From an uncultured Actinomycetes bacterium (lineage in GTDB: Bacteria; Actinomycetota; Thermoleophilia; Gaiellales; JAICJC01): a DNA stretch of 64,000 bases. Numbering within the stretch: the first letter of the stretch is position 1; each line of letters begins with the position of its first letter. The notes under the pieces are model-generated. The model was not told the origin of the DNA. It saw only the letters and a program-made list of their open reading frames with translations, and searched no databases. Positions 17,751 to 63,139 of this stretch are shown piece by piece. Position numbers and translations under genes: made by a program. Location: NCBI GenBank assembly GCA_963755675.1, contig CAVWLK010000040.1, positions 57,584 through 121,583 of the forward strand, given 5' to 3'.

Positions 17751-18767
<1,017 letters not shown>

Positions 18768-18916: not shown

Positions 18917-18973
18917 TTACCCTCCTATCATCGGGGGTGGGGTGAAATGCTCCTACCCCCACTCGGGGGATCT

Positions 18974-20849: not shown

Positions 20850-20916
20850 CGGGCCACACTAGATGGTTGATTTCGTGTTCGTCGAGTGAACATGGAATCA
20901 ACCATCTTGACCCTCT

Positions 20917-22780: not shown

Positions 22781-22811
22781 CCACTGATCGTAGCCGTGGA
22801 GTGGCCACGGC

Positions 22812-25266: not shown

Positions 25267-25354
25267 GCGCTCACGCTACGGCCGCCCGCCGTCACGAAAC
25301 CAGCCCCACCACGTGCCAAAACCGTCACGACAGGCGCTTGCTACCATCGCAGCC

Positions 25355-29712: not shown

Positions 29713-29716
29713 TCGC

Positions 29717-33923: not shown

Positions 33924-33936
33924 CCTCAGGCGCACC

Positions 33937-38237: not shown

Positions 38238-38324
38238 GACACCCTCCTCGGTCGGGTTACAACTTGGATACATTCGCATCCCGGCCGGATGGCTGTCAAG
38301 CGGTCGTTCCGGCAGGGGGCGCGC

Positions 38325-38352
38325 TTGACCCAACCTGACGATCGCGTAATGT
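38325..38352 (+). promoter_or_regulatory. Candidate sigma-70-type promoter: TTGACC-16 nt-TAATGT
   Basis: -35 at 38325-38330 and -10 at 38347-38352. The GntR ATG at 38364 is 11 nt downstream of the -10, implying a very short leader or none. Confidence 0.4.
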
Positions 38353-38363
38353 ATGCAAAGACC

Positions 38364-40775: not shown

Positions 40776-41606
40776 CTACCGCTCCAGCGCGACCGTGTTC
40801 GACAGCGTCCCCACTCCCGACACGGTGACGTCCACCACGTCGCCGTCGGCCAGGTACAGCGGCGGCACACGGGAATCACCGACGCCGCCGGGAGTGCCGG
40901 TGGCGATCACGTCGCCGGCTTGCAGCGTCATGCCCTTCGACAGGTAGACGATCAGCTCGACGATCGAGAAGATCAGGTTGCGGGTGTTGGACGCCTGGCG
41001 CTGCTCGCCGTTGACGGACGTGGCGACGTCGATGTCGGCGAGGTCGACGCCGTCGGCAGTGACCACGCACGGCCCCATCGGCGCGAACGTGTCGAAGCTC
41101 TTGCCGAGCGTGAACTGGCGAAGCGGGGTCTCGAGCTGCGCTCGGCGGCCGGACACGTCGTGGAAGGCGCTGATGCCGCCCACCGCGGCCCGCGCCGTCG
41201 CCTCATCCGCCCGGTAGACATCGCGACCGAGCACCACCGCCACCTCGCCCTCGTAGTCCGGCCGCGTCTCTTCGCGGGGGATCACGATCGGATGGCGGTG
41301 ACCGGTCAACGACGTCGCCCACTTGGCAAACACCACCGGCACAGGAGGGATCTCGAGCTCGGACTCCTCGGCGTGATCGCGGTAGTTGAGCCCGATCGCC
41401 ATCAGCTTGACGGGCACCGTGGGATGGAGCAGCCGCACCTCCTCGGCGGGATGCGCGAGGCCGGAGGCATCGGCGATCTGCTGCCAACCCTCGGGGCTGG
41501 GCACGAAGCCGAGCGGGCCTGCCTGGCCGGCGTCGTACACCACCTCGCCCTCGAGCCTGCCCAGCTTGACCGCGCCGGATGGGTCGACGAATCGTGCCGC
41601 CCTCAT
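40776..41606 (-). CDS. Fumarylacetoacetate hydrolase (FAH) family protein
   Basis: Start at ATG 41606 gives 276 aa. Motifs are IGLNYRDHAEE, PDYEGEVAVVLG, TFAPMGP and GDVIATGTPGGVG. Confidence 0.88.
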   Translation of the reverse strand: MRAARFVDPSGAVKLGRLEGEVVYDAGQAGPLGFVPSPEGWQQIADASGLAHPAEEVRLLHPTVPVKLMAIGLNYRDHAEESELEIPPVPVVFAKWATSLTGHRHPIVIPREETRPDYEGEVAVVLGRDVYRADEATARAAVGGISAFHDVSGRRAQLETPLRQFTLGKSFDTFAPMGPCVVTADGVDLADIDVATSVNGEQRQASNTRNLIFSIVELIVYLSKGMTLQAGDVIATGTPGGVGDSRVPPLYLADGDVVDVTVSGVGTLSNTVALER

Positions 41607-41989
41607 CGGCCCTGCTCCGTCCGCAGCACCTTGAGAGCGTTGATCGCACGCGGGAAGCCGGCGTACGGTGCCGTCTGCAGGATCGTCTCCTCGATCTCCT
41701 GCCAGGGCACGTCGATCGCCCGCAGCGCGCGGATGTGCGCGGCAACCTGCGGTTCGGAGCCGCCGATCGTCGTCAGCACCGCCACGATGATCAGCTCGCG
41801 CTCGCGGGCCGTGAGGCCGTCGCGGGTGTGCACCTCGCCGAACACCCAGTCCACCAGCCAATCGCCCATCGGGCTGCCCATCCGCTCGATGAACGCCTCC
41901 CCACCGGGCTCGTCGCCGAGCTGGGCAAGCCGTTCGAGGCCACGCTCGTGGCGGGTCTGCTGCTGCATCTCGTCCTCCCGTTCGGTCAT
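41603..41989 (-). CDS. Carboxymuconolactone decarboxylase (CMD/AhpD-like) family protein
   Basis: 128 aa with LTARERELIIVAVLTTIGGSEPQVAAHIRAL and QTAPYAGFPRAINAL. ATGA overlap with the FAH gene. Confidence 0.8.
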   Translation of the reverse strand: MTEREDEMQQQTRHERGLERLAQLGDEPGGEAFIERMGSPMGDWLVDWVFGEVHTRDGLTARERELIIVAVLTTIGGSEPQVAAHIRALRAIDVPWQEIEETILQTAPYAGFPRAINALKVLRTEQGR

Positions 41990-42023
41990 CGCGCAACTCT
42001 AGACCCGGTCATGATCCCGGCGC

Positions 42024-42052
42024 TTGACCGTCGGCGAACAAGCGCATATTGT
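42024..42052 (+). promoter_or_regulatory. Candidate sigma-70-type promoter: TTGACC-17 nt-TATTGT
   Basis: -35 at 42024-42029 and -10 at 42047-42052. GTG 42061 lies 8 nt after the -10, which is compatible with a leaderless transcript. It shares the 10-mer GCGCTTGACC with the candidate promoter at 38321-38330. Confidence 0.4.
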
Positions 42053-42915
42053 ATCCAATCGTGGCCGAGCGACGAGTTCGTGTCGGGGTCGATGGCTCGC
42101 CCAGCTGGGGTCGGCTGGACGGTGACGGCGTGCTGCTCGACTCGGGAATCCGCCTGTCCCAGACAGATGCCGAGTTCCTGGCACCGGTCGAACCCAGCAA
42201 GATCATCGCCACCCACCTCACGTACCGGAGCCGCGTCGAGGAGTACGCAGCGCGCACGCCGGCCGAGCCCTCGTACTTCATGAAGCCCCCCACCACGCTG
42301 AACGGCCATCTCGGAGTGCTTCGGCGTCCGCGTGGCGCCCGCTTCCTCAACTACGAGGGAGAGGTGGCGGTCGTCGTCAGCCGCCGCATGCACGGCGTGC
42401 CCGAGCGCGACGTGCTCTCGTACGTCGCCGGCTACGCCTGCGCCAACGACGTCGGCCTGCATGACTTCCGCCATGCCGATCGCGGGTCGATGCTGCGGGT
42501 CAAGGGCCAGGACGGCTTCTGCCCGATCGGCCCGGAGCTCGTGCCCGCCGAAGAGTTCGACCCCACCGGCTTCGAGCTGCGAACGTACCTGAACGGCGAA
42601 GTAGTGCAGCACGGCAGCGCCGCCGACCTGATCTGGCCGATCTCCTACCTGCTGGCCGACCTCTGCCGCCTGATCACCCTCGAACCGGGCGATGTCGTGC
42701 TCTCGGGCACGCCTGCGAACTCGCGGCCGATGGAGCCTGGCGACCAGGTCGAAGTCGAGATCTCCGGGCTGGGCCGGCTCACGAACACCGTCGTCGAGTG
42801 GGACGTCGACCTGTCCGGGCCCGGCGACCAGCTCCAGGTATCGGCGAACACGCTGCACGTCGCGCTGGCAATGCCCGAGGACGAGGCCGAGCGGGTCGTG
42901 GCCGCGGAGCGGCCC
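42049..42915 (+). CDS. FAH family protein (HpaG/HpcE-like isomerase/decarboxylase type)
   Basis: IIATHLTYRSR, LNYEGEVAVVVS, DGFCPIGP and GDVVLSGTPANSRP. The start is TTG 42049 or GTG 42061. No in-frame stop occurs before the dioxygenase start, so the 3' boundary is uncertain. Confidence 0.8.
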
Positions 42916-43855
42916 GTGATCCAGCTGCGGCGCGATCGACCACGTCTGCCTGCGGGTCGCCGACCTCGACGAGGCCATCGCCGCTGGACGGTGCAGTTCG
43001 GGCTCACCGAGGGAGGAGAGGATCGGCCATCACGCTACCTGCGCTGCGGCTATGAGCCGTACTCGCTGGAGCTGATCGCCTCCGGCGACCCCGGGACACG
43101 ACCACACGGGCGTGGGAGCTGCGGCGAGGCTGCTCGCTCGACGACGCCGCTCGCCACCTCGAGTCACCACGGCATCGCCTACGAGCACCGCGACGGCGCG
43201 CTGCATCTCAACGACCTGGACGGCAACGGGCTCGAGATCGCCCCCTTCAACCCACCGCCGGATGCGCGGCCGCCGGTCGCCCGCAGCACCAGCACGCTGC
43301 CGGGCTGCGCCCGCGCAAGCTGGGACACGTCAACCTGCTGACGACCGACCTGGACGCCCAGACCGCGTTCTACACCGACGTGTTGGGCATGCGCATCTCC
43401 GACAGCGCTCGGCAGCGCCGGCAACTGGTTCACGATCAACCCCGACCACCACGCGATGGCACTCGTGCAATTCGACTACGCGCACTTCCACCACTTGGCC
43501 TGGGAGTTCGTCGACTGGGGCGAGCTGCGGGTGCTGTTCGACCACCTCGGCCAGCACGGACGCTGGCTCGGTGTGGGGTCCGCTGCGCCACGGCCTGGCG
43601 CAGAACCTCTGCGCCTACGTGCGGATTCCCGAGGAGGAGCTGATCGTCGAGTGCTACTGCGACATGGAGCAGGTCGAGCCCGACCACGAGCCACGCGAGT
43701 GGCCTGACGACCGCCACTCCTCCAACGTCTGGGGCATCCTGCCGCCTCGCTCCTACTTCCGCTTCGACGCGGAGGCGATCCGCTACGAGCGCGAGGGACT
43801 CGAGGCCAAGGGCCATGCGCTGCCACCGTTGACACCAGAGATGATGGAGGACCTG
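42916..43855 (+). pseudogene. Type I extradiol ring-cleavage dioxygenase (VOC superfamily, catechol/homoprotocatechuate 2,3-dioxygenase-like), about 7 frame switches
   Basis: Pieced together across three frames: IDHVCLRVADLDEAIARWTVQFGL, YSLELIASGDPG, WELRRGCSLDDAARHLESHGIAYEH, LGHVNLLTTDLDAQTAFYTDVLGMRISD, HHAMALVQFDYAHFHHLAWEF and WGPLRHGLAQNLCAYVRIPEEELIVECYCDME. Both boundaries are approximate. Confidence 0.75.
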
Positions 43856-45332
43856 ATGGCGACCGTCGAGACCCAGAAGACACCGTCGCCGCCCGCACCG
43901 GCAGCAGTTCCTGGACGGGCTGCGGGGCGACGCCCGCGAGATCTGGCTGAACGGCGAGAAGATCACCCATCCGCTCGACCATCCGCAGCTGTGCGGCGGC
44001 GGCCGAGACGATGGCGCGGGTCTACGACCTGCAGCACGAGCACGCCGTCGAGATGCTGGCGCCCTCGCCCGACGACGGCCGGCTGGTCAACGTCACCCAC
44101 CTGATCCCGCGCCGCAGGAGGACCTCGAGCGGCGTCGGCGGGCGATCGAGCTGACCGCCGCGTTGACCGGCGGGCATGATGGGCCGTACGCCCGACTACC
44201 TGAACGTCACGTTCGCCTGCTTCGCCGGCGCGCTCCGACGTGTGGGCGCGGCGCGGCAACGAGCAGGGCGCTGCCAACCTCGTCGCCTACCAGAAGCGGA
44301 TGCGCGACCGCGACCTCTCGACCACCCACTCGATCATGAACCCGCAGGTCGATCGCAGCAAGCCCGAGGCCGAGCAGGCGGCCGGCGAGGTGGCCCTGCA
44401 CAAGGTCGGCGAGACCGAGAACCACATCACCGTCCGCGGCGCCCGCATGCTGGCGACACTCGCGCCCTACGCCGACGAGCTGACGATCTACCCCGGCTCG
44501 GACATCCGGCCCCAGGACGGCAACTACGCGCTCTCGTTCGCGATGCCGATGGGCACGCCGGGGCTCAAGTTCATCTGCCGCGACTCGCTACTCCAAGCAG
44601 CGCAGCCGCTTCGACTACCCGCTCTCGTCGCGGTTCGACGAGATGGACGCCGTCGTCATCTTCGACGACGTGGAGGTGCCCAAGGAGAGGCTGTTCCTGT
44701 GCGGCGACACCGACGCCTATTCCGAGGTGATCACCGACACCGGCTGGCGCGGCCACATCATGCACCAGGCGTTCACCCGCGCCTACGTCAAGCTGTCGTT
44801 CGCGCTCGGCCTCGGCCATCTGATCGCCAACACCACCGGCGTCGTGCGGTTCGACCACATCCAGGAGAAGCTGGGACAGATCTGGAACATGACCGAGCTG
44901 ACCCGTTCGGCACTCGTCTCGGCCGAGGCCGGCTCGGCGCTGGACGACGGCGGCGTCTGGTACCCGGACGACAGGCCGTTCCTGGCGCTACGGGGCGAGA
45001 TGCCGAAGTGGCTGCCCTACATCAACGAGCTGCTGCAGCTGATCGGTGGCGGGGGCTACATGTGCACGCCGTCCGAGGCAGACCTGAAGGGCCCGTTGGC
45101 CGACCAGATCGCGAAGTACTACCAGGCAGCCGGTGCCGACGCCGAGCGCCGGATCCGCCTGTTCAGGCTCGCCTGGGACTACATCGGCAGCGATCTGGGC
45201 GGCCGCGGCGAGCTGTACGAGCGCTTCTACCTGTCCGACTCCTACCGGATGACGGCGCTGGCATACAAGATCGCCGACAAGTCGTTCGCCGAGTCGCTGG
45301 TCGAGCAGTTCCTGACCGAGGAGACGGCGTGA
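43856..45332 (+). pseudogene. hpaB: 4-hydroxyphenylacetate 3-monooxygenase oxygenase component family (HpaB-type), about 6 frame switches
   Basis: ATG 43856 follows GGAGG. Segments are FLDGLRGDAREIWLNGEKITHPLDHP, AAAETMARVYDLQHEH, MMGRTPDYLNVTFACFAG, STTHSIMNPQVDRSK, HITVRGARMLATLAPYADEL and the intact tail in ORF 44643..45332. Frame switches occur at ~43905, 43997, 44110, 44175, 44235 and 44588. Confidence 0.8.
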
Positions 45333-46114
45333 GCCGCGGCTACTCGCTGCCGCTCTCGCCGGGCGGCACCGCCTCGATCATCCCGTCGCCGCCGTGGCAC
45401 TACGTGGGCGACTTCCTGGTGATCGAGTACTGGGCCGACCCCGACGCCGTGGCGGCGGTGTTGCCGAGGGGCTGAGCCGTACGCCGACGACCCCGGCCGC
45501 TGCGCCGCGCTGTTCGTCGACTGGCAGTCGTGCTCGGACTGCCGGCGACGGAGCTGCTCGACCCGGTGCGCGGCCAGTACAAGGAGTTCTTCATCGTGGT
45601 GAACGCGATGCTCGGCGCCGAGCACGTCACGAGCTGCCCCTACATCTGGGTCGATCGCGACTTCGCGCTGATCCGTGGCTGGATCCAGGGCTTCCCCAAG
45701 AAGCTGGGTCGAGGTGCACATGACGCGCAGCTTCGGGCTCGACTGCAAGGCCGAGGGCCGCAGCTTCGCCGGCACGCTGGCGGCCACGGACGGCTGCTGG
45801 CGGAGGGATCGGTGACGCCCGAGCAGGTGAGCGAGAGCGGGCCGACTCACAACGATCCGCCGCTGATCAACCGTCCGCCACTTTCCCCGTTTGGCCGCCG
45901 GCCGGTGGCAGGACGCCGCCCTCCACGAGCTGGTGCGGGCGCGAAGCAGCGACCGGTCGATCTCGGACATCCACGAGGGGTCGGCGACGCTCGGCTGCAC
46001 GATGCGCCGGGGGAGGAGCACGCCGAGCTGGCGCCGGTTCGGGTCGGCAAGGGCTTCCGGTTCCAGTTCGCCTACACGGTCGATGACCTGGAGACGGTGC
46101 GGGAGCTGGCGTGA
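45329..46114 (+). pseudogene. Acetoacetate decarboxylase (ADC) family protein, about 7 frame switches
   Basis: GTGA overlap with the hpaB stop. Segments are SPPWHYVGDFLVIEYWADPDAVAAVLP, GQYKEFFIVVNAMLGAEHVTSCPYIWVDRDFALIRGWIQGFPKKLG and GKGFRFQFAYTVDDLETVREL. The intervening pieces lie in other frames. Confidence 0.65.
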
Positions 46115-46799
46115 GCCGCGCGGCCCTGGTCACCGGCGGCGGCAGCGGGATCGGCATGGTGATCGCGGCGCGGCTGGCCGCGGACGGCTGGGGGGTGTGC
46201 GTGGCAGGGCGGCGGGAGCAGCCGCTGCGTGCCTCCGGTCGCGCCTGGACGGCCGGGGACATGGGCCTGCCCGCCGACGCCGAGCGGATCGTGGCCGAAG
46301 CGGTGGCCGCTCTGGGCGGGCTCGACCTGCTGGTCTGCAACGCCGGCATCTCGCGCCCGGGCACGGTGCTGGAGCAAACACCGGAGGGCTGGGACGAGCT
46401 GATGCGCACCAACCTGACTGGTGTCTTTCTGACCTGCCGTGCCGCCCTCCCCCACTTGCTGGAGCGACGTGGCTCGATCGTCACGATCGGCTCGGCTGCC
46501 GGCCGTCGGGCCTCGACCGAGTCGGCCGCCTACTGCACGTCCAAGGCCGGGCTGGCGATGCTGACCCAGTGTCTGGCCATCGACCACGGCCCCCGGGCGT
46601 GCGCGCCAACTGCGTGGCGCCCGGCTGGGTGCGTACCGACATGGCCGACCACAGCATGGAACTGAGGGCACAGGCCGCAGGCACGACCCGCGAGCAGGCC
46701 TATGCTGAGGCCATGCGCAACGTGCCGCTGCGACGGGCGAGCTCGGCCGAGGAGGTTGCCGGGCTGGTGGCATGGCTGGCCGGCCCCGAAGCGGCCTAG
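46111..46799 (+). pseudogene. Short-chain dehydrogenase/reductase, one frameshift
   Basis: GTGA overlap with the upstream gene. Motifs are ALVTGGGSGIG, NAGI and YCTSKAG. The frame changes at the ccccc/ggg run at ~46596 to give VRANCVAPGWVRTDM...AWLAGPEAA. Confidence 0.85.
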
Positions 46800-46871
46800 G
46801 TTACACGGCACCGTGATCGCGGTCGACGGGGGAGCCGAAATCGTCGACACAGCCAGTCTGGCGGCGTCGGG

Positions 46872-48313
46872 ATGAGCACGATCACCGTCTCGCCCGACCA
46901 CTTCATCGGCGGCCGGCGGGTGCCCGGGGACACGACCTTCACCGACATCAGCCCGATCGACCAGAGCGTGCTGGCCGAGGTCGCCCGCGGCGGCCCGCGC
47001 GAGACCGCGATGGCCGTGGACGCGGCCCGCCGGGCGTTCCCGGACTGGGCGGCGCTCGGCGCCGCCGGGCGAGCCGTCCACCTTCGGCGGCTGGCCGATC
47101 TGATCGACGAGAACGTCGAGCGCATCGCCACGGTCGAGTGCCTCGACATGGCGATGCTCGAGCGATCGCTGAAGGCCCGCGTGATCGCGCGAGGCGCGCG
47201 CAACTACCGCGCCTATGCCGATCTGGCCGAGGCGTACGAGGAACGCAGCTGGAGCTCCAACGGCACCGAGAACCGCGTGCTTCGGATGCCCAGCGGACCG
47301 GCGGCGGTGATCACGCCCTGGAACGCCCCCTTCATGCTGTCGACGTGGAAGACCGCGCCCGGGCTGGCGGCCGGCTGCACGGTGGTGCTGAAGCCGCCGG
47401 AGTGGGCGCCGCTGTCGTGCTCGCTGCTGGCCGATCTGACCGCCGAGGCAGAGTTGCCGGCGGGCGTCTTCAACATCGTCCAGGGCATCGGCGAGGAGGC
47501 CGGCGCCGCGCTCGTAGCGCGACCCTGGGTTGCGCCGGATCAGCTTCACCGGGTCGCCCGAGACGGGACGCCACATCGGCCGGGCGGCTGCCGCGAACAT
47601 CGTGCCCTTCACCGCCGAGCTGGGCGGCAAGGGGCCGTTGATCGTGTTCGCGGACAGCGATCTGGATGCGGCCGCGCGCCAAGGCGTCCGGCCAGTACGA
47701 CGACGCCGGCCAGGTCTGTCTGGCGGGCACCCGGCTGCTGGTCGAGGAGTCGGTGCGCGATGGCTTCCTGGAGCGCTTCCACGCCGGCGTCGACGCGCAG
47801 GTGCTGGGTGACCCGCGCGACGACTCCACCACCATCTCGCCGCTGATCCACCCTGACCACCTGTCCCGCGTGGAGGGATTCGTCGAGCGGGCGCGCCAGA
47901 ACGGTGACCGCATCGTGCGCGGCGGCAAGCGGGCCGAGATCGGCGGCCTATGGTACGAGCCCACCCTGGTCGAGCCGGCGTCGAACGAGTCCGAGATCGT
48001 GCAGCGCGAGGTGTTCGGCCCCGTACTGACGTTCCAGACGTTCCGCGACGAGGCGGAGGCGGTGTCGCTCGCGAACTCGACCGCCTACGGCCTCTCGGCG
48101 ATCATCTACACCGGCTCGCGGGAACGGGCGGAGCGGGTGGGCCGCGCCGTGCGGGCGGGCACCGTGTGGGTGAACTGCTTCCTGGTGCGCGACCTGACGG
48201 CGCCCTTCGGCGGCGTCGGCATCAGCGGCATCGGTCGCGAGGGTGGCGACTACGCTCTCGACTTCTACTCCGACCTGAAGACGCTGCAGATCCTCGACGG
48301 AAGCACGGCATGA
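46872..48313 (+). pseudogene. NAD(P)-dependent aldehyde dehydrogenase (HpaE/semialdehyde dehydrogenase-like), two frameshifts
   Basis: VITPWNAPFMLSTWKTAPGLAAGCTVVLKP is followed by ISFTGSPETGRHIG...FTAELGGKGP in a second frame (~47525). GQVCLAGTRLLV...EIVQREVFGPVL then follows in a third frame (~47680). Confidence 0.88.
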
Positions 48314-49563
48314 ACCGGGTGACTACTCTCTCTGATGTCTACCTCGACAACGCTGCCTTCGCAGAGCGCGTGCCCCATGAGACGTTCGCGGTGATGCGGG
48401 ACGAGGCTCCGGTGCACTGGTACGACTGGGAGCACGGCAAAGGTTTCTGGTGCATCACTCGCTACGACGACATCGTCGCGGCGATGAAGGACTGGCGCAC
48501 GTTCTCGTCCGAGACCGGTGCCACCGCCCTGGAGGACCTCGACCCGGACCAGATCGAGGCCCGCAAGTCGATGCTCGATACCGATCCGCCCAAGCACTCG
48601 AGCCTGCGCGCGATCGTGAACAAGGGGTTCACGCCCCGCGCCGTGGCGGCTTACGAGGATCTGCTGCGCGAGCTGACCCGCTCGATCCTCGACCAGGCAC
48701 TGCCGATGGGCGAGTTCGACTTCATCGAGGAGGTCGCCAAGCAGCTGCCGATCCAGGTGCTGTGCCGGATCCTGGGCGTGCCGCTGCAGGACGACGAGCA
48801 GCTGATCGCGTGGGGCGACAAGATGATCGGCAACACCGATCCTGATCTGGGCGGCCTGCATCCCGCCAGCCCGGAGAGCGCCGAGTACCGGCTCTACCCG
48901 TTCCGCAGCCCTTACGCGATGGAGGTGTTCCAGTACGGCCATCGCATTGCCGCCGTCCGCCGAGACGACCCCAAGGACGACCTCGTCTCGAAGCTGGTGA
49001 CGTGGGAGGACGAGGACGGAAAACGGCTGACCGAGCAGGAGTTCGACACGATGTTCCTGCTGCTGGTGGTGGCCGGCAACGAGACCACCCGCCAGTCGAT
49101 CGCCCACGGAATGAAGGTGCTGATGGACAACCCCGACGCGATGCGCCGGCTGCGCGACGATCCCGGGCTGATGCCGACGGCGGTCGAGGAGATCATGCGC
49201 TGGTCGTCGCCCGTGATCCACTTCAGGCGTACGGCCACCGTCGATACGGAGATGCACGGGACGCGCATCGCGGCCGGCGACAAGGTCGTGCTGTGGCTGA
49301 TTTCGGGCAACTACGACGAGCGCCAGTTTCCGGAGCCGCTGCGGTTCGACATCGAGCGGCGCCCTAACAACCACGTCACGTTCGGCCGCGGCGGCCCTCA
49401 CTTCTGCCTCGGAGCGCACCTCGCGAAGCTGGAGACGAAGGTGTTGTTCGAGGAGCTGCTGCCGCGGCTCGGATCGATCGAGCAGACCGGGCCGGCGCGG
49501 CGGGTCGAGTCGAACTTCACGAACGCGTACAAGTCGATGCCGGTGCGGGTCACCGGCGCATGA
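48310..49563 (+). CDS. Cytochrome P450
   Basis: ATG 48310 overlaps the ALDH stop (ATGA). 417 aa with I-helix LLLVVAGNETTR, EXXR motif EEIMRW and heme loop FGRGGPHFCLGAHLA. Confidence 0.92.
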   Translation: MNRVTTLSDVYLDNAAFAERVPHETFAVMRDEAPVHWYDWEHGKGFWCITRYDDIVAAMKDWRTFSSETGATALEDLDPDQIEARKSMLDTDPPKHSSLRAIVNKGFTPRAVAAYEDLLRELTRSILDQALPMGEFDFIEEVAKQLPIQVLCRILGVPLQDDEQLIAWGDKMIGNTDPDLGGLHPASPESAEYRLYPFRSPYAMEVFQYGHRIAAVRRDDPKDDLVSKLVTWEDEDGKRLTEQEFDTMFLLLVVAGNETTRQSIAHGMKVLMDNPDAMRRLRDDPGLMPTAVEEIMRWSSPVIHFRRTATVDTEMHGTRIAAGDKVVLWLISGNYDERQFPEPLRFDIERRPNNHVTFGRGGPHFCLGAHLAKLETKVLFEELLPRLGSIEQTGPARRVESNFTNAYKSMPVRVTGA

Positions 49564-49605
49564 GGTCATGAGACACTGACGAAGCACTCTCGGAAAGGGC
49601 GGTAG

Positions 49606-50934
49606 ATGGCAGACAGCAAGCTGGCCGAGCTCGAGCGCAGGGGCGTGACGACGATCCGCATCTGCTATCCCGACCTGCACGGCATCTGCCGCGGCAAGGA
49701 GTTTCCGGCCGCCTTCTTCGAGCACCTCGTGGACGACGGAGCGGCGCACTGCGAGGCGATCATGACCGTGGATCTGCGCCACAACGTGGTGGCCGGCTTC
49801 GAGCACGGATTCCAGGACATCGTTGCCCGGCCCGACGTCACGACGCTCGCACAGGTGCCGTGGGATCCGGCAGTGGCGTGGTGCATCGCCGATCTCGCCA
49901 GGATGGACGGCTCGGAGTTCGGCGTCGACTCGCGCGGCGTGCTGAGGCGAGCGGTGGCGGAGTTCACTGCGGAGGGACTGGTGCCGGTGATGGGCCCGGA
50001 GCTCGAGTTCTATCTCTGCCAGGCCGACCCCGAGGCGCCGAACGGCTACTCGCGCTACGTGAACAACGATAGCCACGTCTACACGGTGGGAGCCGTTGCC
50101 GATCCGCGCGGCGTGCTGCGCCAGATGATGCACGCCTGCGCCGACCTTGGGCTGGGCGCGTACGCCGCCAACCACGAGTACGGACGCTCGCAGTACGAGA
50201 TCAACCTGCGCCACTCCGAGGCGCTCGACGCCGCCGACCGCGCCTTCCTGTTCAAGACCACGGTGAAGGAGATGGCGGCCGTGAACGGCCTGCTGGCGAC
50301 CTTCATCGGCAAGCCGTTCAACGACGACGAGGGCTCGGGGTTCCACCTCCACCTGTCCCTGGGCGACGAGACCGGCGCCAACCTGCTGAACGGCGACGGG
50401 CCGGAGGGGCTCTCGCCGCTCGCCCACCACTTCCTGGCCGGCCTGCTCGAACATGGCCCGGCGCTGATGGCGTTCTTCAACCCCACGACCAACGCCTATC
50501 ACCGCATCACTGAGGAGGCGCTGGTGCCGACGCTGGTCAGCTGGGGCCACGACAACCGGCTGTGCATGGCTCGCGTCCCGCGCGAGCGGGGCAAGGCCAC
50601 GCGGATCGAGCTGCGGCTCGGCGACGGGTCGTCGAACCCCTACCTGGCAACCGCCGCGGCGCTGTTCGCAGGGCTGGACGGTATCCGCCGCAAGCTGGAT
50701 CCGCCGGAGCCGTTCGAGGGACTGATCTACGAACAGCCCGCCGCCGAGGAGTGCACACCGCTGCCGCGCACCTTCGATGCGGCGATCGAGGCGCTGGACG
50801 GCGACACGCTGATCAAGGAGGCGATGGGCGAGGAGCTGGTCAACACCTTCCTGACGATCAAGGCGGCGGAGCTCGAACGGTGCAAGAAATGGGTCACCGA
50901 CTGGGAGTTCCGCGAGTACACGCACCACCTGTGA
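49606..50934 (+). CDS. Glutamine synthetase family protein (gamma-glutamyl-amine ligase-like, GlnA3/PuuA type)
   Basis: 442 aa. An N-terminal beta-grasp (TIRICYPDLHGICRGKEF) is followed by catalytic-domain motifs GPELEFYL, NHEYGRSQYEINL, GSGFHLHLSL, NAYHR and TRIELRLGDGSSNPYL. Confidence 0.88.
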   Translation: MADSKLAELERRGVTTIRICYPDLHGICRGKEFPAAFFEHLVDDGAAHCEAIMTVDLRHNVVAGFEHGFQDIVARPDVTTLAQVPWDPAVAWCIADLARMDGSEFGVDSRGVLRRAVAEFTAEGLVPVMGPELEFYLCQADPEAPNGYSRYVNNDSHVYTVGAVADPRGVLRQMMHACADLGLGAYAANHEYGRSQYEINLRHSEALDAADRAFLFKTTVKEMAAVNGLLATFIGKPFNDDEGSGFHLHLSLGDETGANLLNGDGPEGLSPLAHHFLAGLLEHGPALMAFFNPTTNAYHRITEEALVPTLVSWGHDNRLCMARVPRERGKATRIELRLGDGSSNPYLATAAALFAGLDGIRRKLDPPEPFEGLIYEQPAAEECTPLPRTFDAAIEALDGDTLIKEAMGEELVNTFLTIKAAELERCKKWVTDWEFREYTHHL

Positions 50935-52115
50935 GCGCGATCTCCTCGTTTGCCGAGTCGGTCACCGTCGAGGATCTGGAACGCGATCCGTACCCGATCT
51001 ACGCCCGCCTGCGCTCGGACGCGCCGGTCTGCCACATTCCGGCCGTCGCACTGACGCTGGTCACGCGCTGGGACGACGTCCAGCACGTCGCCCGCCACCC
51101 GCACCTGTTCACGGCGGACGTTGCGTCCTCGCCGCTCACGCGCACTCTCGGCCAGAACATGCTGACGCTCGACGGTGAGCGCCAGAAACGGATCCGCGCG
51201 ACGATCGACCCGTCGATGCGGCCGCGGCGGGTGGAGCAGTACGCGCCGGACGTGATCCTGCCGATCGCCGAGCGGCACCTCGCGGCGCTGCAAGATCGCG
51301 GCGGCGGCGAGTTGATGGCGGAGTACTGCGAGCCGGTCTCGGTGCTTGCGCTGGGAGCCGTGATGGGGCTGGGTGACGTCGACGCCGACACGCTTCGACG
51401 CTGGTTCGGATCGCTGGCGCTGGGCGGCGCCAACTTCGAATCGGATCCGGCCAAGCAGGCGATCGCCGACGCGGCGAGCGCGGAGGTCGACAGCCGGGTG
51501 ATGCCACTGCTCGAACGGCTCGAAGCCGAGCCAGATGACAGCGTGCTGTCGCAGATGCTGCACATCGATCCGCCCACGGGCGGCCGGCTGTCCAAGGCGG
51601 AGGTGTTGGCCAACCTGAAGCTGATCCTGCTGGGCGGCATGCAGGAGCCTGGACATGCGCTCGGCATCACGCTGTGGGCGCTACTCACTCATCCTGAGGC
51701 GCTGGCCGAGGTGCGCGGCGATCCCGGCATGCTCGCCTCCGCGATCGAGGAGGCGCTGCGCTGGCACTCCCCGGTCGGCACGCAGACGCGCCAGGTGACG
51801 GAGCGGACGCAGATCGCCGGCGTGGAGCTGGAGCCGGGGACGGTGGTTGCGGCCGTGCTGGCATCGGCCAACCGCGATGAGCGGCACTGGAGCGATCCGG
51901 AGCGCTTCGATGTCCATCGCAGCGGCGCCCACGCCGGATTCGGACTTGGCGCGCATCACTGCGCGGGTGCGCCGCTGGCCCGCAACGAGGTGCTGTTGCC
52001 GTTGCGGCTGCTGCTGGAGCGGCTGCCCACGCTACGGCTCGACCCAGCCCACACGGTGGAGCTGTCGGGCTGGGAGTTCCGCGCGCCGCTCGCCCTGCAC
52101 GCACGATGGGACTGA
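50931..52115 (+). CDS. Cytochrome P450
   Basis: GTG 50931 overlaps the upstream stop (GTGA). 394 aa with ILLGGMQEPGH, EEALRW and heme loop GFGLGAHHCAGAPLA. Confidence 0.9.
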   Translation: MSAISSFAESVTVEDLERDPYPIYARLRSDAPVCHIPAVALTLVTRWDDVQHVARHPHLFTADVASSPLTRTLGQNMLTLDGERQKRIRATIDPSMRPRRVEQYAPDVILPIAERHLAALQDRGGGELMAEYCEPVSVLALGAVMGLGDVDADTLRRWFGSLALGGANFESDPAKQAIADAASAEVDSRVMPLLERLEAEPDDSVLSQMLHIDPPTGGRLSKAEVLANLKLILLGGMQEPGHALGITLWALLTHPEALAEVRGDPGMLASAIEEALRWHSPVGTQTRQVTERTQIAGVELEPGTVVAAVLASANRDERHWSDPERFDVHRSGAHAGFGLGAHHCAGAPLARNEVLLPLRLLLERLPTLRLDPAHTVELSGWEFRAPLALHARWD

Positions 52116-52426
52116 CGGTGGCTGACTGGAAAACAGTCGCCGAAAGCGACGAACTGCCGGACGGCGAGATGATCGAGGTCGACAACCGCGGCGAGCCGCT
52201 GGTGATCGCGCGCGCGGCCGGCGGCCTGTACGCGTTCGAAGGCTGGTGCACGCATGAGGAGTGCCCGCTCTCGCAGGGCCAGTTGACCGAGCACCGGCTC
52301 GAGTGCTACTGCCATGGCGCAGTGTTCGACGTCCGCACCGGCGAGGCGCTAGTCGGGCCGGCCGTGGCTTCGCTCGAGACCTACCCCGTGCGCGAGCAGG
52401 ACGGCGAGATCCAGGTCGAGATGTAG
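52106..52426 (+). CDS. Rieske-type [2Fe-2S] ferredoxin
   Basis: 106 aa with CTHEECPL...CYCHGAVFDVRTGE. It overlaps the P450 3' end by 10 nt. Confidence 0.88.
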   Translation: MGLTVADWKTVAESDELPDGEMIEVDNRGEPLVIARAAGGLYAFEGWCTHEECPLSQGQLTEHRLECYCHGAVFDVRTGEALVGPAVASLETYPVREQDGEIQVEM

Positions 52427-52429
52427 GCG

Positions 52430-53419
52430 CTAAGCAGCGCGGCCGCGGCCGCGCTGCTTGACGTCGTACATGGCGAGATCCGCGGCGCGGATCAGTTCAT
52501 CGCCGGTCGCGGCGTTGTCAGGGAAGATTGCGGCGCCGACGCTACCGGCAACCTCCAGCCAAACGCCCTCGACGTCGACAGGTAGGTGCAGCTGTGCTTG
52601 CACGCGGTCGTACAGCACGTCCAGCGCGTCTCTGTCGGTCCCGGCCAGGCTGACAATCATCAGGAACTCGTCACCGCCCAGGCGCGCGACCACGTCGCCG
52701 CCGCGCGCGGCCGCGGAGAGGCGGTTGCCCACAGCCCGCAGCACCGCGTCTCCGGCCGCGTGGCCATGGCGGTCGTTGATCTGCTTGAAGCCGTCGAGGT
52801 CGATGAACAACACCGCCACGGACGACCCCTCGCGTCGGGCGCGGTCCAGCGCGACGTCGAGGTGCTCCTGGAACTGTGCCCGGTTCGGCAGCCCGGTCAG
52901 GTGATCGTGGTAGGCGAGGTGAGCGAGCCGTCTGTGGGCCTCCGCCAGCTGCTCCTCGACGCGGTGGCGATCGGTGATGTCGGTCACGATCCCGTCCACC
53001 AGCAGCCTGCCGTCGTCCGTCGCGCGGGGCACGCACCGCTCCCAGACCCAGCGGGTGGCGCCGTCGAAGCCCACCAGCCGATACTCGGTCTCGGTCGCCT
53101 CTCCCTTGTAGAGCGCCGGGAAGCCCGCCTCGTACGCCTGCCGGTCGTCGGGGTGGATGCAGGACTCCCATGCCAGTTCCTGATCCATGCCCTCGGGGAC
53201 GCCACCCAGCAGGCTGTCCAGCGCCTGGCCTATCCAGACGTGGCAGACGTAGTCGAGCTCGCCCAGCATCTCCATCTCGTACATGTGCACGCCGGCGGAC
53301 GCGGCCACGCGCCGGAGCAGCGCGGCCATGGCGGCATCCTGATCAGGGGGTTCAACTGGGGGCATCGGTCGATCCGCGAACGGGTCACGGTTTGCATCGG
53401 CTGATACACGCTCGATCAT
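52430..53419 (-). CDS. PAS domain-containing diguanylate cyclase (GGDEF)
   Basis: Start at ATG 53419 gives 329 aa. PAS motifs are CIHPDDRQAYEAGF...EYRLVGFDGATRWV. The GGDEF domain reads HDHLTGLPNR...LFIDLDGFKQINDRHGHAAGD...ARLGGDEFLMI. Confidence 0.9.
   Translation of the reverse strand: MIERVSADANRDPFADRPMPPVEPPDQDAAMAALLRRVAASAGVHMYEMEMLGELDYVCHVWIGQALDSLLGGVPEGMDQELAWESCIHPDDRQAYEAGFPALYKGEATETEYRLVGFDGATRWVWERCVPRATDDGRLLVDGIVTDITDRHRVEEQLAEAHRRLAHLAYHDHLTGLPNRAQFQEHLDVALDRARREGSSVAVLFIDLDGFKQINDRHGHAAGDAVLRAVGNRLSAAARGGDVVARLGGDEFLMIVSLAGTDRDALDVLYDRVQAQLHLPVDVEGVWLEVAGSVGAAIFPDNAATGDELIRAADLAMYDVKQRGRGRAA
52432..52459. terminator. Perfect 28-bp palindrome (bidirectional terminator-like hairpin) at convergent gene ends
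   Basis: AAGCAGCGCGGCCGCGGCCGCGCTGCTT is its own reverse complement. It starts 6 nt after the ferredoxin stop and overlaps the last codons (KQRGRGRAA) of the minus-strand GGDEF gene. Confidence 0.55.
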
Positions 53420-53454
53420 GAGGCCCTGGGGTGTGAGCTGGCGGCGGCTCGGTG

Positions 53455-53533
53455 AGGGGTCAGACCCCTGCGGGGTCAGACCCCGGTGCCACTTGTCCGG
53501 TGCCAGGCAACGCGGCACGCGGTGCCTGGCACC
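53455..53533. repeat. Second copy of the REP-like element, joined to a GGTGCC(A/T)GGCACC palindrome pair
   Basis: 53455-53487 is identical to 40661-40693 (33 nt: AGGGGTCAGACCCCTGCGGGGTCAGACCCCGGT). It is followed by GGTGCCAGGCA (53499-53509) and the perfect palindrome GGTGCCTGGCACC (53521-53533). Confidence 0.85.
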
Positions 53534-53580: not shown

Positions 53581-54714
53581 TCAGCCCCGCCGCTCGAGCG
53601 CCATCGCCGCGGCGTAGGCGGCTCGCACGTCGCCCTCGTTCCAGGCGTGCGGATTCACGGTGAGGCAGTAGTCGGCCAGCGAGAGCTCGACCAGCCGATC
53701 GATGTGGCGATCCTCCACCCCCGCCTCGCGCAGCGTCGGCAGACCGATCTCGGCCAGCAGCCGCCCAACTGCGCGGATTGCCCGCGAACCGTCGCCGGAG
53801 CCGTCCGCCGGCTCGCCCAGCGCGTCAGCCACACGCTCCAGCCGCTCCGAGCACTCGGGCCGGTTGATTTCCAGCGTCTCGGCCAGCACCAGGCCGACCG
53901 TCAGGCCATGAGGCAGGCCCAGCGTCGAGCCGATCGAGTGGCCCAGCGCGTGGTCGGCGCCGCAGTCGGACAGGTTCATGGCCAGACCCGCCATCAGGCT
54001 GCCGAGGCTCATCTCCGTCCTGGCCTCCCGGTCGCCGCCGTCGGCGACGGCGCGGCCGAGGCCGGCGGCGACGTGGCGGCACGCCTCGAGCCCGATCGCC
54101 ACCGAGAGCGGATTGCCGTTCGAGACGATCACCCCGCCGATCGCCTGGGCGAGTGCGTCCGCCCCCGTCCAAGCCGTCGCATCGCGCGGAAGGCCCAGGG
54201 TGAGCAGTGGGTCGACCACGGCGTCCTGCGCCCGCATCAGAGGATGGGCGGCACCCAGCTTGCGACCGTGCTCGACGTCCACGACCACCGCACCGCCCGA
54301 GACCTCGCTCCCTGTGCCGGACGTGGTGGGAACCGTGATCAACTCGATGCGCGGCGGCACCACGTCGACCTCGCCGGCCACGAAGCGCTGGAACGGTTCC
54401 GCCTGGTCCGCGACCAGCCGCGCGGCCTTCGCCAGGTCGAGAGCCGAGCCGCCGCCGACGGCCAGGATCACCTGCGGCGCGAACTCGGCCACGCGCTCGG
54501 CCGCGGCCGCGATCAGCTCAAAGGTGGGCTCGCCCGACGGCTTGGCCAAGAGCTCGAGTCCCGCCGTCGCGGCCGCCACGGCCGGGATCGCGGCCACCGG
54601 CCCCTCGATGATCGCAAGCGCTCGGCGACCGCCGATCAACTCCGGAATCTGCTCCGCGGCCCCCTCGCCAAACCGGATCCGCACCGGCAGGTGGGCGGCG
54701 AACGCCGGGATCAC
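53581..54714 (-). CDS. Iron-containing (group III) alcohol dehydrogenase
   Basis: 377 aa with AVGGGSALDLAKA and metal-site histidines in GADHALGHSIG. Confidence 0.88.
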   Translation of the reverse strand: MIPAFAAHLPVRIRFGEGAAEQIPELIGGRRALAIIEGPVAAIPAVAAATAGLELLAKPSGEPTFELIAAAAERVAEFAPQVILAVGGGSALDLAKAARLVADQAEPFQRFVAGEVDVVPPRIELITVPTTSGTGSEVSGGAVVVDVEHGRKLGAAHPLMRAQDAVVDPLLTLGLPRDATAWTGADALAQAIGGVIVSNGNPLSVAIGLEACRHVAAGLGRAVADGGDREARTEMSLGSLMAGLAMNLSDCGADHALGHSIGSTLGLPHGLTVGLVLAETLEINRPECSERLERVADALGEPADGSGDGSRAIRAVGRLLAEIGLPTLREAGVEDRHIDRLVELSLADYCLTVNPHAWNEGDVRAAYAAAMALERRG

Positions 54715-58700: not shown

Positions 58701-58813
58701 AGGCAACGCAGTATACGGTCCGCTGATCTGGACCACATCGCGCTGCGTGTCAGATTGCCAGCGATTGCCTTCCATCCCGGAGCATGGGACAATGCAGGCA
58801 GAAAGGCACACTC

Positions 58814-62953: not shown

Positions 62954-63139
62954 CTCCGTGATGGTGCCACCACGGATGGACTCGCGCTTGATCGAGTTTG
63001 CTGACCTGCCGGATCGGAGGCGATCCAGTCTTCCGTAGTTTCCCTCGCGCAATCCCGTGTCTCCACTGATGGCGGGACGGCTCCCAGCGCCAAGAATCGA
63101 GCCGGAGACATCTTTCTCCATGTTCAAAAGGAGGTTGTC

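Follow-up and report, generated by a model that had tools for sequence, protein, structure and literature searches.

A glutamine synthetase-like ligase paired with a cytochrome P450 in a Thermoleophilia supercluster: candidate genes for the gamma-glutamylation-dependent catabolism of aromatic amines

What is a glutamine synthetase (GS)-like gene doing between two cytochrome P450 genes, with a gene for a Rieske-type ferredoxin behind them? This arrangement lies toward the end of a 64,000-nucleotide stretch of contig CAVWLK010000040.1 (assembly GCA_963755675.1) from an uncultured Gaiellales bacterium of the class Thermoleophilia; we call this whole stretch, which has a G+C content of approximately 70%, the window. 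We assigned the genes to families, compared the active-site residues of the ligase with those of characterized enzymes, and followed the linkage of the parts through related genomes. The ligase has lost the ammonium site of GS, and it is linked in these genomes to one P450, to an amidase and to genes typical of aromatic ring cleavage. We lean, by a modest degree, toward reading the whole as a supercluster for the gamma-glutamylation-dependent catabolism of an arylethylamine-type aromatic amine, with P450 oxidation and ring cleavage; the identity of the substrate, the action of the P450s on its glutamylated form and the order of the steps are what we infer from the genes.

The four genes that raised the question are:

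48310-49563, plus strand: P450a, a cytochrome P450 of the CYP124/125 clan (417 aa, intact; Pfam p450 1.7e-26)
49606-50934, plus strand: GS-like gamma-glutamyl ligase, a predicted glutamate-amine ligase (442 aa, intact; Pfam Gln-synt_C 2.1e-101)
50931-52115, plus strand: P450b, a CYP255-like P450 of the O-demethylase type (394 aa, GTG start, intact; Pfam p450 2.2e-24)
52106-52426, plus strand: Rieske-type [2Fe-2S] ferredoxin, BphF/TodB/HcaC-like (106 aa, intact; Pfam Rieske 1.3e-21)

The ligase, the P450s and the ferredoxin

Translation of the four open reading frames (ORFs) found no internal stops. A preliminary description of this DNA, made from the letters alone, had called the four genes tightly coupled, and this holds for the GTGA at 50931-50934, where the stop of the GS-like gene overlaps the GTG start of P450b. 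The ATGA at 48310-48313, listed there as a further coupling, joins the stop of the upstream aldehyde dehydrogenase (ALDH) gene to the P450a start and not two of the four genes to each other, and the P450a stop at 49563 is followed by a 42-nt spacer with the ribosome-binding-like motif GGAAAGGG before the GS-like start at 49606. The 10-nt overlap given for P450b and the ferredoxin requires the ATG at 52106, but orthologues align from the GTG at 52118, 3 nt past the P450b stop, so that the overlap is plausible but not certain. The single sigma-70-like promoter match in 41.5-53.8 kb lies at 42024-42052 (plus strand), in the divergent intergenic region before the operon, and as a consensus match only it is weak evidence. 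Because the genes overlap or abut one another, because this promoter-like site stands alone, and because a convergent GGDEF gene begins 3 nt past the Rieske stop, we take the four genes to be the distal end of one long plus-strand operon of approximately 42.0-52.4 kb.

The protein encoded between the two P450s is a GS family member, as first described, and it had been proposed to check it against the housekeeping GlnA. Its best solved relatives are an archaeal GS of Methanothermococcus (9e-73) and then two gamma-glutamylmethylamide synthetases (GmaS, 1e-63), with NpaA1 of the naphthylamine pathway (8wwu, 4e-53) a more distant homologue. It scores under every NCBIfam equivalog cutoff: the best score is to the type III/GmaS model (328 against a cutoff of 470), followed here for comparison by GlnA TIGR00653 (294 bits against 429) and PuuA NF045547 (280 bits against 650). 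When aligned with GlnA and PuuA of E. coli and with GS and GmaS proteins of solved structure, the protein keeps the metal, ATP and glutamate ligands (E129, E131, E212, E220, G265, H269, H271, R321, R339, R344, E357 and R359) and replaces those of the ammonium site (D50 by C, S53 by I, Y179 by V and the E327 flap residue by L; also N264 by E), the D50 position being the least secure of these since a pairwise HMMER alignment puts a D nearby. Around Y179 it has HVYTV and around E327 ALVPT, which come close to the QVYSV and MYVPT of PuuA; the roles of D50, Y179 and the E327 flap have been described for GlnA3 and PauA7 (PMC5403932). The cutoffs and the active-site residues together rule out a housekeeping GS, and by these sequence criteria the protein is a predicted glutamate-amine ligase of the GS superfamily. 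The association with an amidase and an amine transporter that marks gamma-glutamyl-amine ligases is found as well, in the form of a Peptidase_C26 (C26) amidase and an APC-family permease that are co-conserved with the gene.

Both P450s keep the heme-Cys loop, as had been noted: FGRGGPHFCLGAHLA at aa 358-372 of P450a and GFGLGAHHCAGAPLA at aa 336-350 of P450b. P450a has canonical motifs throughout (AGNETT in the I-helix, EIMR as the ExxR motif, and the heme loop) and groups with CYP124, CYP268, CYP126 and CYP125 at 1e-83 to 1e-76 (CYP124 2e-83, CYP125 approximately 1e-76). Its best match is the reconstructed ancestor CYP125MRCA (4e-122; PMC12100521), natural members being far weaker, and compared with CYP124 and CYP125MRCA it has an extra loop of about 9-12 residues within aa 189-201. 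On these alignments P450a belongs to the CYP124/125 clan; a search for its homologues returned close Gaiellales-type relatives only and nothing wider.

P450b aligns end to end with SyoA and GcoA, its best solved relatives (1e-80 to 1e-76). Over approximately 396 aligned positions, with the reference sequences retyped from HMMER alignments, the identity amounts to 40.9% for SyoA and 37.1% for GcoA; as the CYP255 family threshold is 40% identity, the SyoA value is borderline. Its I-helix carries GGMQEPGH at aa 235-242, which is the CYP255-diagnostic GGxQExxH. This motif replaces the acid-alcohol pair in the CYP255 aromatic O-demethylases, where it is needed for activity, and the family comprises guaiacol, alkylguaiacol and syringol O-demethylases (PMC11842817). 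The P450s had both been proposed as hydroxylases; the family assignment makes the CYP255-like P450b more likely a catechol-making demethylase than a hydroxylase.

The fourth protein is indeed of the Rieske type, with the cluster motifs CTHEECPL (aa 48-55) and CYCHGAVF (aa 67-74) that provide the CxH (aa 48-50) and CxxH (aa 67-70) ligands. Its best matches are dioxygenase ferredoxins (PDB 5bok, 2qpz, 3dqy and 1fqt), and it matches NCBIfam AndAb and HcaC under their cutoffs. The remark that such a ferredoxin is not the usual P450 partner stands insofar as the pairing is unusual, but it has a precedent in the Rieske-type SpFdx4, which supports the P450 DoxA (PMC12979805). Neither a Rieske oxygenase nor an FAD reductase was found in the cluster on searching the window and related loci, and the adjacent P450s are the sole oxygenases in the cluster that would be expected to take electrons from the ferredoxin. 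The only Rieske oxygenase-like sequence of the window is an ORF at 76-732 (plus strand), which shares 30% identity with HcaE, the Rieske oxygenase alpha subunit of E. coli (7.8e-24), and lies about 48 kb from the ferredoxin. In agreement with the preliminary description, tblastn with E. coli HcaD and with the reductase of a related Streptomyces canus cluster found no ferredoxin reductase in the window, nor did Pfam scans of its large ORFs; this negative holds less strictly for other types of reductase in short or broken ORFs. Queries with HcaD and with the S. canus reductase and ferredoxins likewise found no reductase or conventional ferredoxin in the window or related loci, except for one match at the edge of locus L048.

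Conservation of the cluster and its surroundings

We scanned one genome per GTDB species for relatives of the GS-like protein and mapped the operon proteins of the intact Gaiellales relative L002 on all loci by tblastn. The scan gave 79 loci, all in the class Thermoleophilia, in which the GS-like protein is 70-92% identical in Gaiellales relatives and 57-62% in Solirubrobacterales; an identical protein was not on record, and the closest are those of Gaiellales metagenome-assembled genomes (MAGs) at 89-92%. Counting only loci with enough flank to judge, the other genes are present as follows:

P450a (within approximately 3 kb of the GS-like gene): Gaiellales-type 25/25, Solirubrobacterales-type 33/37, total 58/62
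HpaB: Gaiellales-type 28/28, Solirubrobacterales-type 35/37, total 63/65
Extradiol dioxygenase: Gaiellales-type 27/27, Solirubrobacterales-type 34/36, total 61/63
Acetoacetate decarboxylase (ADC) family: Gaiellales-type 27/27, Solirubrobacterales-type 32/35, total 59/62
ALDH: Gaiellales-type 21/21, Solirubrobacterales-type 31/35
P450b: Gaiellales-type 26/33, Solirubrobacterales-type 0/41
Rieske ferredoxin: Gaiellales-type 27/32, Solirubrobacterales-type 0/41
Short-chain dehydrogenase (SDR): Gaiellales-type 15/29, Solirubrobacterales-type 37/39

GS and P450a are the conserved core, and P450b and the Rieske ferredoxin are accessory, occurring within Thermoleophilia in Gaiellales only, at approximately 80% of loci. 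The core is kept in opposite gene orders, P450a-GS in Gaiellales and GS-(permease)-P450a in Solirubrobacterales, with a gap between GS and P450a of down to 59 nt. Locus L006 reads P450a-GS-Rieske with P450b cleanly missing, L028 and L079 have the Rieske gene adjoining GS without P450b, and five loci (L025, L026, L033, L034 and L040) are without both accessory genes. The four-gene arrangement put forward at the outset is therefore kept in related genomes but is not indivisible. That the ferredoxin is independent of P450b, staying beside P450a-GS where P450b is absent, suggests that it serves P450a as well.

Some loci vary further. The SDR gene, which the window, L001 and L002 have, is missing in L005 and L006, the nearest Illumina relatives, and in roughly half of the Gaiellales loci. 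A luciferase-like (F420/flavin-dependent) monooxygenase is found in L037 (14236-15468), in 31 other Solirubrobacterales loci and in L087 (692-1615); it follows the P450a orthologue in 29 of 36 Solirubrobacterales clusters, one occurs in S. canus, and the Gaiellales versions have none. Some Solirubrobacterales loci, namely L044 (15071-18869), L064, L074 and L082, have a second, more distant GS-like gene of 37-42% identity. In L044 it has a P450b-like gene (34%) on one side and the P450a orthologue on the other, a hint at paralogous ligase/P450 modules.

The PuuD-like hydrolase and the omega-aminotransferase at 33.9-35.9 kb had been mentioned as loose supporting context; both are present, and they are part of the same supercluster in Gaiellales and Solirubrobacterales. 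The C26 gene is inside the cluster in 20 of 35 Solirubrobacterales loci and the aminotransferase (AT3) in 30 of 36, as in L037, where the order is C26-ADC-FAA2-AT3-GntR / FAA1, CMD / dioxygenase-HpaB-SDR-GS-permease-P450a. On the Gaiellales side, a metagenome scan with the C26 protein of the window found the order C26-AT3-permease(-)-GntR-Amidohydro_3-FAA1(-)-CMD(-)-FAA2-dioxygenase-HpaB kept in the Gaiellales-type loci L094, L100, L101 and L123, and partially in L093, L095, L096 and L103. Because this C26-to-HpaB order is kept in Gaiellales, we regard a supercluster of approximately 19 kb (33.9-52.4 kb) as the conserved unit. Its members upstream of P450a, and the convergent neighbor downstream, are:

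33904-34656, plus strand: PuuD-like gamma-glutamyl amidase (Peptidase_C26; Pfam PF07722 6.5e-58; 33% identical to E. coli PuuD)
34596-35915, plus strand: class-III (omega) aminotransferase (Pfam Aminotran_3 1.1e-82; NCBIfam omega-aminotransferase subfamilies)
36778-38234, minus strand: APC-family amine/amino-acid permease, frame-broken (tblastn with the L037 permease, 50%, two overlapping pieces)
38235-39029, plus strand: GntR/FCD-family regulator (Pfam GntR and FCD; homologues in 48 related loci)
38978-40625, plus strand: Amidohydro_3 amidohydrolase with one frameshift at approximately 40.09 kb (two ORFs, PF07969 positions 1-310 and 299-471)
40779-41606, minus strand: FAA-hydrolase family protein, HpaG-like (FAA1), divergent from the operon (tblastn 69% to L002; HpaG C-terminal domain 5e-46, under cutoff)
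41603-41998, minus strand: carboxymuconolactone-decarboxylase-family protein (CMD; tblastn 80% to L002 CMD; Pfam CMD)
42040-42900, plus strand: FAA-hydrolase family protein, HpaG-like (FAA2), first plus-strand operon gene (Pfam FAA_hydrolase 1.2e-55; tblastn 83%, one piece)
42985-43831, plus strand: type I extradiol dioxygenase (Glyoxalase fold), frame-broken (tblastn pieces in frames 1 and 2)
43902-45332, plus strand: HpaB-like flavin-dependent phenol 3-hydroxylase, frame-broken over 3 frames (L002 orthologue to Thermus HpaB 2yyg 1e-104)
45338-46105, plus strand: ADC-family protein, MppR-like, with indels (L002 orthologue Pfam ADC 2e-55, NCBIfam MppR 7e-65, under cutoff)
46111-46869, plus strand: SDR, frame-broken, between ADC and ALDH (tblastn/Pfam)
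46872-48313, plus strand: HpaE-like ALDH with frameshifts at approximately 47526 and 47677 (two ORFs, Pfam Aldedh 7-206 and 260-460)
53581-54714, minus strand: Fe-dependent alcohol dehydrogenase, convergent neighbor (Pfam Fe-ADH; downstream in 24/26 Gaiellales-type loci)

The best NCBIfam match of the PuuD-like protein is gamma-glutamyl-gamma-aminobutyrate (gamma-glutamyl-GABA) hydrolase, under cutoff. The L037 permease belongs to Pfam AA_permease_2 (4.4e-26) and has homologues in 36 loci, and the Amidohydro_3 gene is kept at the same position in L002, L006, L094, L100 and L123. A second APC-family permease fragment lies near the window end (63005-63727, plus strand; AA_permease_2 7.7e-28). 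The Fe-dependent alcohol dehydrogenase is often accompanied by a PhzF-family gene in Gaiellales-type loci, and the PAS-GGDEF diguanylate cyclase that lies between it and the Rieske gene in the window (52430-53518, minus strand) is placed as in L001, unlike in most relatives.

Homoprotocatechuate-type genes had been reported directly upstream of P450a; they are there, although five of them (those for the dioxygenase, HpaB, ADC, SDR and ALDH) are each split over two or three frames in the window. In the homoprotocatechuate (4-hydroxyphenylacetate, Hpa) pathway they find their best matches, namely HpaB of the Thermus type, HpaD, HpaE and HpaG, but all of these stay below the equivalog cutoffs. 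The L002 dioxygenase orthologue reaches 92 bits (3e-26) to NCBIfam HpaD against a cutoff of 321, the L002 ALDH orthologue has HpaE as its best NCBIfam match with 509 bits against 638, the HpaB-1 (Thermus type) model gives 426 against 480, and the HpaG C-terminal domain scores 157-194 against 276. Where the Hpa pathway has the hydratase HpaH and the aldolase HpaI, this cluster has an MppR-like enzyme of the ADC family, and no HpaC reductase was seen. In the HpaB-like protein the catalytic Arg, Tyr and His are retained but the carboxylate ligands S197-T198 are not: Gly-Ser takes their place, within a motif, YPGSDIRPQ, that over 60 loci from the two orders share. In Thermus HpaB these two residues, Ser197-Thr198, hold the carboxylate of 4-hydroxyphenylacetate (PMC6710988), so that their replacement fits a substrate related to, and not identical with, 4-hydroxyphenylacetate. 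By sequence the aromatic part is Hpa-like, not demonstrably Hpa.

The broken frames raise the question of whether the upstream genes have decayed. Compared with the Illumina MAG L006, 42.9-47.7 kb has approximately 30 isolated indels of 1 nt; most are insertions, and they lie outside homopolymers. The four target genes (48300-52430) have no frame-changing indels. The two regions match L006 equally well at the nucleotide level, with 85.5% identity in the indel region and 85.0% in the clean one, and this equal substitution divergence points to assembly error. The in-frame HpaB pieces overlap without conflict and are 87-92% identical to orthologues. Frames are broken elsewhere too, in a CoA-transferase family III gene (29265-30885, plus strand, three frames), in the permease (36778-38234, minus strand) and in Amidohydro_3 (at approximately 40090, plus strand), and the closest relative, L001, also has fragmented gene calls. 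For these reasons, namely equal divergence, broken frames elsewhere and the fragmentation of L001, pseudogenization of the upstream genes is less likely than assembly error; the indels are probably consensus or assembly errors and not gene decay, with the sharp change in indel density near 48 kb unexplained, and the entire window gives the impression of an assembly prone to error.

The window also has broken minus-strand genes at 21000-25000. Its surroundings at 9802-20858 (minus strand) and 24941-26107 (plus strand) are ordinary chromosome, with genes for arginyl-tRNA synthetase, an M48 peptidase, an extracytoplasmic-function sigma factor, iPGM, pgk, gap, CofD and a chlorite-dismutase-family (HemQ-like) protein, and two PAS histidine kinases are encoded at 6708-9572 and 58727-60274.

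Related clusters occur in cultured actinomycetes. A plasmid of Streptomyces canus NBC_00633 has GS (44%) and then a P450 52% identical to P450a; divergent from this pair are genes for a small ferredoxin, an HcaD-type reductase, an ADC-family protein, an ALDH, an FAA hydrolase and a LigB-type 3,4-dihydroxyphenylacetate dioxygenase, and the cluster also encodes an APC permease and a second P450 that has a ferredoxin of its own. Embleya sp. NBC_00896 has GS, P450a (56%), two ALDHs, C26, ADC, an FAA hydrolase and an HcaD-type reductase; of the GS-P450a clusters, a dioxygenase is annotated in that of S. canus and not in that of Embleya. On pSLUN1 of Streptomyces lunaelactis MM109 we found GS, permease, ADC, dioxygenase, FAA hydrolase and ALDH genes, and no P450, HpaB or aminotransferase gene within 10 kb on either side. 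In S. lunaelactis and Embleya a second ALDH gene lies directly upstream of the PuuD-like gene, the S. lunaelactis copy scoring best against PuuC (554 bits, under cutoff). The Streptomyces versions are plasmid-borne and are without the Rieske gene. These orthologous clusters in cultured strains make the hypothesis set out below directly testable.

A proposed pathway and its alternatives

The GS-P450a pair is essentially always embedded among HpaB, extradiol dioxygenase, HpaE-like and HpaG-like genes, and this embedding makes an aromatic substrate, as was suggested from the start, the natural reading. Glutamylation of a monoamine blocks its sole nitrogen; its only sensible use is to protect the amine while another part of the molecule is converted, as happens in the Ipu and GlnA4 systems, and here that part would be the ring. 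In the pathway we propose, the APC permease would import an arylethylamine-type amine, which might be phenylethylamine, tyramine, dopamine or one of their methoxylated relatives, an aromatic amino acid being another option. The GS-like ligase would then use ATP to join this amine to the gamma-carboxyl of glutamate and so mask it, and oxygenation would turn the masked compound into a catechol: as the ligase's obligate partner, P450a would hydroxylate it, the HpaB-like flavin monooxygenase would add an ortho hydroxyl, and P450b, where present, could remove an aryl O-methyl group of methoxylated analogues as formaldehyde. The Rieske ferredoxin would relay electrons to the P450 or P450s from a reductase whose gene lies elsewhere. 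Degradation of the ring would fall to the extradiol dioxygenase together with the HpaE-like ALDH, the FAA-family enzymes of the HpaG-like type and the MppR-like enzyme of the ADC family, the PuuD-like amidase would strip off the glutamyl group, and the class-III aminotransferase would dispose of the freed amine.

Several points weigh against this pathway. CYP124 and CYP125, the closest characterized relatives of P450a, hydroxylate terminal methyls of lipids and sterols and not aromatic amides, and the known CYP255 enzymes take free guaiacols as substrates and are served by three-domain reductases instead of Rieske ferredoxins. In Thermoleophilia no reductase gene lies near the cluster, most Thermoleophilia clusters have only one ALDH, a second, PuuC-like ALDH not being consistently present, and the aminotransferase subfamily cannot tell GABA from aromatic amines. 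In the window the ring-cleavage genes are frame-broken, and the pathway may be non-functional here if the indels are real. Each of its steps is a prediction from gene families and their linkage.

The same genes admit a more specific proposal, which we hold only tentatively and think rather less probable than its negation: that the amine stays gamma-glutamylated through ring hydroxylation and extradiol cleavage. P450a, the HpaB-like enzyme and P450b would together turn gamma-Glu-phenylethylamine, gamma-Glu-tyramine or a methoxy analogue into gamma-Glu-dopamine, and the Hpa-like enzymes with an MppR-like aldolase-dehydratase would yield pyruvate and gamma-glutamyl-gamma-aminobutyraldehyde. This follows from the carbon bookkeeping of the Hpa pathway with CH2-CH2-NH-Glu as the side chain, and the aldehyde is the entry to the PuuC/PuuD/PuuE steps, so that it could pass into a Puu-type lower route of ALDH, PuuD-like amidase, GABA and aminotransferase. 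Retention of the glutamyl group to this point would explain why the S. lunaelactis cluster can be without P450 and HpaB, why ALDH and PuuD-like genes follow each other in S. lunaelactis and Embleya, and why the Solirubrobacterales PuuD-like gene is placed in an operon with lower-pathway genes. The replacement of the HpaB carboxylate ligands within a strictly conserved motif and the sub-cutoff scores of all Hpa-like proteins are consistent with it. The free amines of ring-fission products and quinones derived from 3,4-dihydroxyphenylalanine (DOPA) or dopamine cyclize spontaneously; a glutamyl mask would stop the amine from cyclizing onto the quinone or the ring-fission aldehyde, the route to aminochromes, betalamic acid and alkylproline precursors.

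Among the alternatives, the one that survives best, though we judge it unlikely, is that the P450s act on non-nitrogenous aromatics that feed a homoprotocatechuate-type pathway, while the ligase, the amidase and the aminotransferase merely share the regulon and handle a separate amine or the nitrogen. P450a would then hydroxylate alkylphenol side chains, with SDR and ALDH completing the conversion to 4-hydroxyphenylacetate, and P450b would make a catechol by removing the O-methyl group of homovanillate or an alkylguaiacol. This suits the place of P450a in an omega-hydroxylase clan and near SDR and ALDH genes, the CYP255-like nature of P450b, whose family is known to act on free guaiacols (PMC11842817), and the gain and loss of P450b as a cassette; Rhodococcus alkylphenol and alkylguaiacol pathways, moreover, use an HpaB-family hydroxylase, an extradiol dioxygenase and CYP255 (PMC6710988). 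However, the adjacency of GS and P450a in two opposite orders, in two Thermoleophilia orders and in Streptomycetaceae, is hard to explain if the two are uncoupled. The SDR that side-chain oxidation would call for is missing in half of the Gaiellales loci, S. lunaelactis has GS, the permease and PuuD- and PuuC-like genes with ring-cleavage genes and no P450 or HpaB, and the HpaB-like protein has neither the S-T of 4-hydroxyphenylacetate hydroxylases nor the H-Y of alkylphenol hydroxylases.

We also considered the Aph/Agc alkylphenol/alkylguaiacol pathway itself as an identity for the cluster and do not favor it: the hydroxylase is closest to Thermus HpaB and has no H-Y pair as in AphA, PheA and NphA, and the ligase, amidase, permease and aminotransferase would be left unexplained.

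Catabolism of the aniline type, in which a ring-bound nitrogen (aniline, aminophenol or aminophenylacetate) would be gamma-glutamylated and the anilide oxidatively deaminated by Rieske-fed P450s, is improbable. The combination of a GS-like ligase with a class-I amidotransferase-like (C26) hydrolase does resemble TdnQ with TdnT, the Rieske ferredoxin is of the dioxygenase type, and NpaA1 is a detectable homologue of the ligase (PMC11335346). Against this, no oxygenase alpha or beta subunits lie near the cluster, the HcaE-like ORF being the only candidate in the window, NpaA1 is more distant from the ligase than archaeal GS, GmaS and PuuA-type profiles are, no Solirubrobacterales or Streptomyces version has the Rieske gene, and the aminotransferase and the PuuC-like ALDH would have no role.

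A slightly weaker case can be made for a true GS or GmaS that assimilates ammonium or methylamine and so captures nitrogen released by the pathway, with no part in activating the substrate. The best solved matches and the best NCBIfam model of the ligase, those to the Methanothermococcus GS and to type III/GmaS, point in that direction, but with all scores under the curated cutoffs and D50, S53, Y179 and the E327 flap replaced we regard it as quite improbable, the more so as the gene is co-conserved with a PuuD-like amidase and a permease and always lies among catabolic genes, not nitrogen-regulation genes.

Biosynthesis of a gamma-glutamylated or ring-cleaved tyrosine or DOPA metabolite, like the DOPA extradiol routes to alkylprolines and betalamic acid, is the least probable of all and highly doubtful: GS-like carriers occur in natural-product pathways, the MppR-like ADC family is known from enduracididine biosynthesis and the Streptomyces clusters are on plasmids, but nonribosomal peptide synthetase, polyketide synthase and tailoring genes are absent, the HpaE-, HpaG-, PuuC- and PuuD-like proteins, aminotransferase, permease and GntR regulator are a typical catabolic set, and the cluster has chromosomal housekeeping surroundings here and is very widespread in soil Thermoleophilia.

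If the gamma-glutamylation-dependent pathway were confirmed, it would indicate how abundant, near-uncultured soil actinobacteria of two orders use arylethylamines as a source of carbon and nitrogen, the compounds concerned being phenylethylamine, tyramine, dopamine and methoxytyramines from plants, animals and microbes. If, in addition, the glutamyl group were retained through ring cleavage, this would be an undescribed meta-cleavage pathway for catecholamines and arylethylamines, widespread in soil Thermoleophilia and present in Streptomyces. Masking of the amine would avert both poisoning of the P450 heme and cyclization of ring-fission products. A CYP255-type O-demethylase and a CYP125-clan P450 that may use a Rieske ferredoxin and amide-tagged substrates would also be of interest for biocatalysis with lignin aromatics and amines.

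Comparison with known systems

The arrangement had not been recognized as a described pathway, and we found no description of this gene cluster in the literature, in a search that left subscription journals largely uncovered, so that a prior description is possible. What appears to be new, as judged from the genes, is the predicted fusion of glutamyl tagging to an Hpa-like meta-cleavage pathway, with the ligase constantly accompanied by a P450 of the CYP125 clan, and also the add-on of a putative CYP255-type demethylase and the apparent replacement of the usual small ferredoxin or GcoB-type reductase by a Rieske-type ferredoxin. Gamma-glutamylation as such is known for polyamines, ethanolamine, isopropylamine and anilines.

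P450b resembles the CYP255 enzymes GcoA, AgcA and SyoA (PMC11842817) in its end-to-end alignment, in its I-helix motif and, as for AgcA, in its aromatic meta-cleavage context. It differs from them in that they have a GcoB/AgcB/SyoB-type reductase, whereas P450b is adjoined by a Rieske ferredoxin and directly follows the GS-like ligase.

The ligase is like the Streptomyces proteins GlnA2, GlnA3 and GlnA4 (PMC5403932, PMC6529630 and PMC8998196), with which it was compared by description, in being actinobacterial, in keeping the catalytic core with loss of the ammonium site and, in its predicted role, in taking the first step of amine catabolism. Unlike it, they act on polyamines or ethanolamine and have no link to P450s or ring-cleavage genes. 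The aniline and 1-naphthylamine systems of TdnQ, AtdA1 and NpaA1 (PMC11335346) have in common with the pathway proposed here an aromatic amine that is gamma-glutamylated before oxygenation, a Rieske-type carrier and a catechol product; they differ in having Rieske oxygenase subunits where this cluster has P450s, and their ligase NpaA1 is distant from the present one.

With the Puu system of E. coli the supercluster shares an APC permease, a GS-like ligase with PuuA-like Y179 and E327 regions, a PuuD-like amidase and a class-III aminotransferase, and the Streptomyces and Embleya versions add a second ALDH beside the amidase. There is no PuuB-type oxidase here, and the Puu-like parts are fused to genes for aromatic hydroxylation, extradiol cleavage and P450s.

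As a precedent for a GS-like ligase that hands on to a P450, the Ipu pathway of Pseudomonas sp. KIE171 (de Azevedo Wasch and colleagues, 2002, a study cited in PMC10832564) comes closest by analogy of parts. In this pathway isopropylamine is reportedly gamma-glutamylated, oxidized by a P450 and deglutamylated to give alaninol. To our knowledge it is the only well-known case of such a ligase and a P450 acting in sequence. Ipu has a small alkylamine as its substrate and is without ring-cleavage genes, a second, CYP255-type P450 and a Rieske ferredoxin; compared as an Ipu-type system, the supercluster is without a reductase, which the S. canus and Embleya versions have. The likeness lies in the list of parts: in the supercluster, too, a GS-like ligase, a P450, a ferredoxin and a gamma-glutamyl hydrolase are encoded together.

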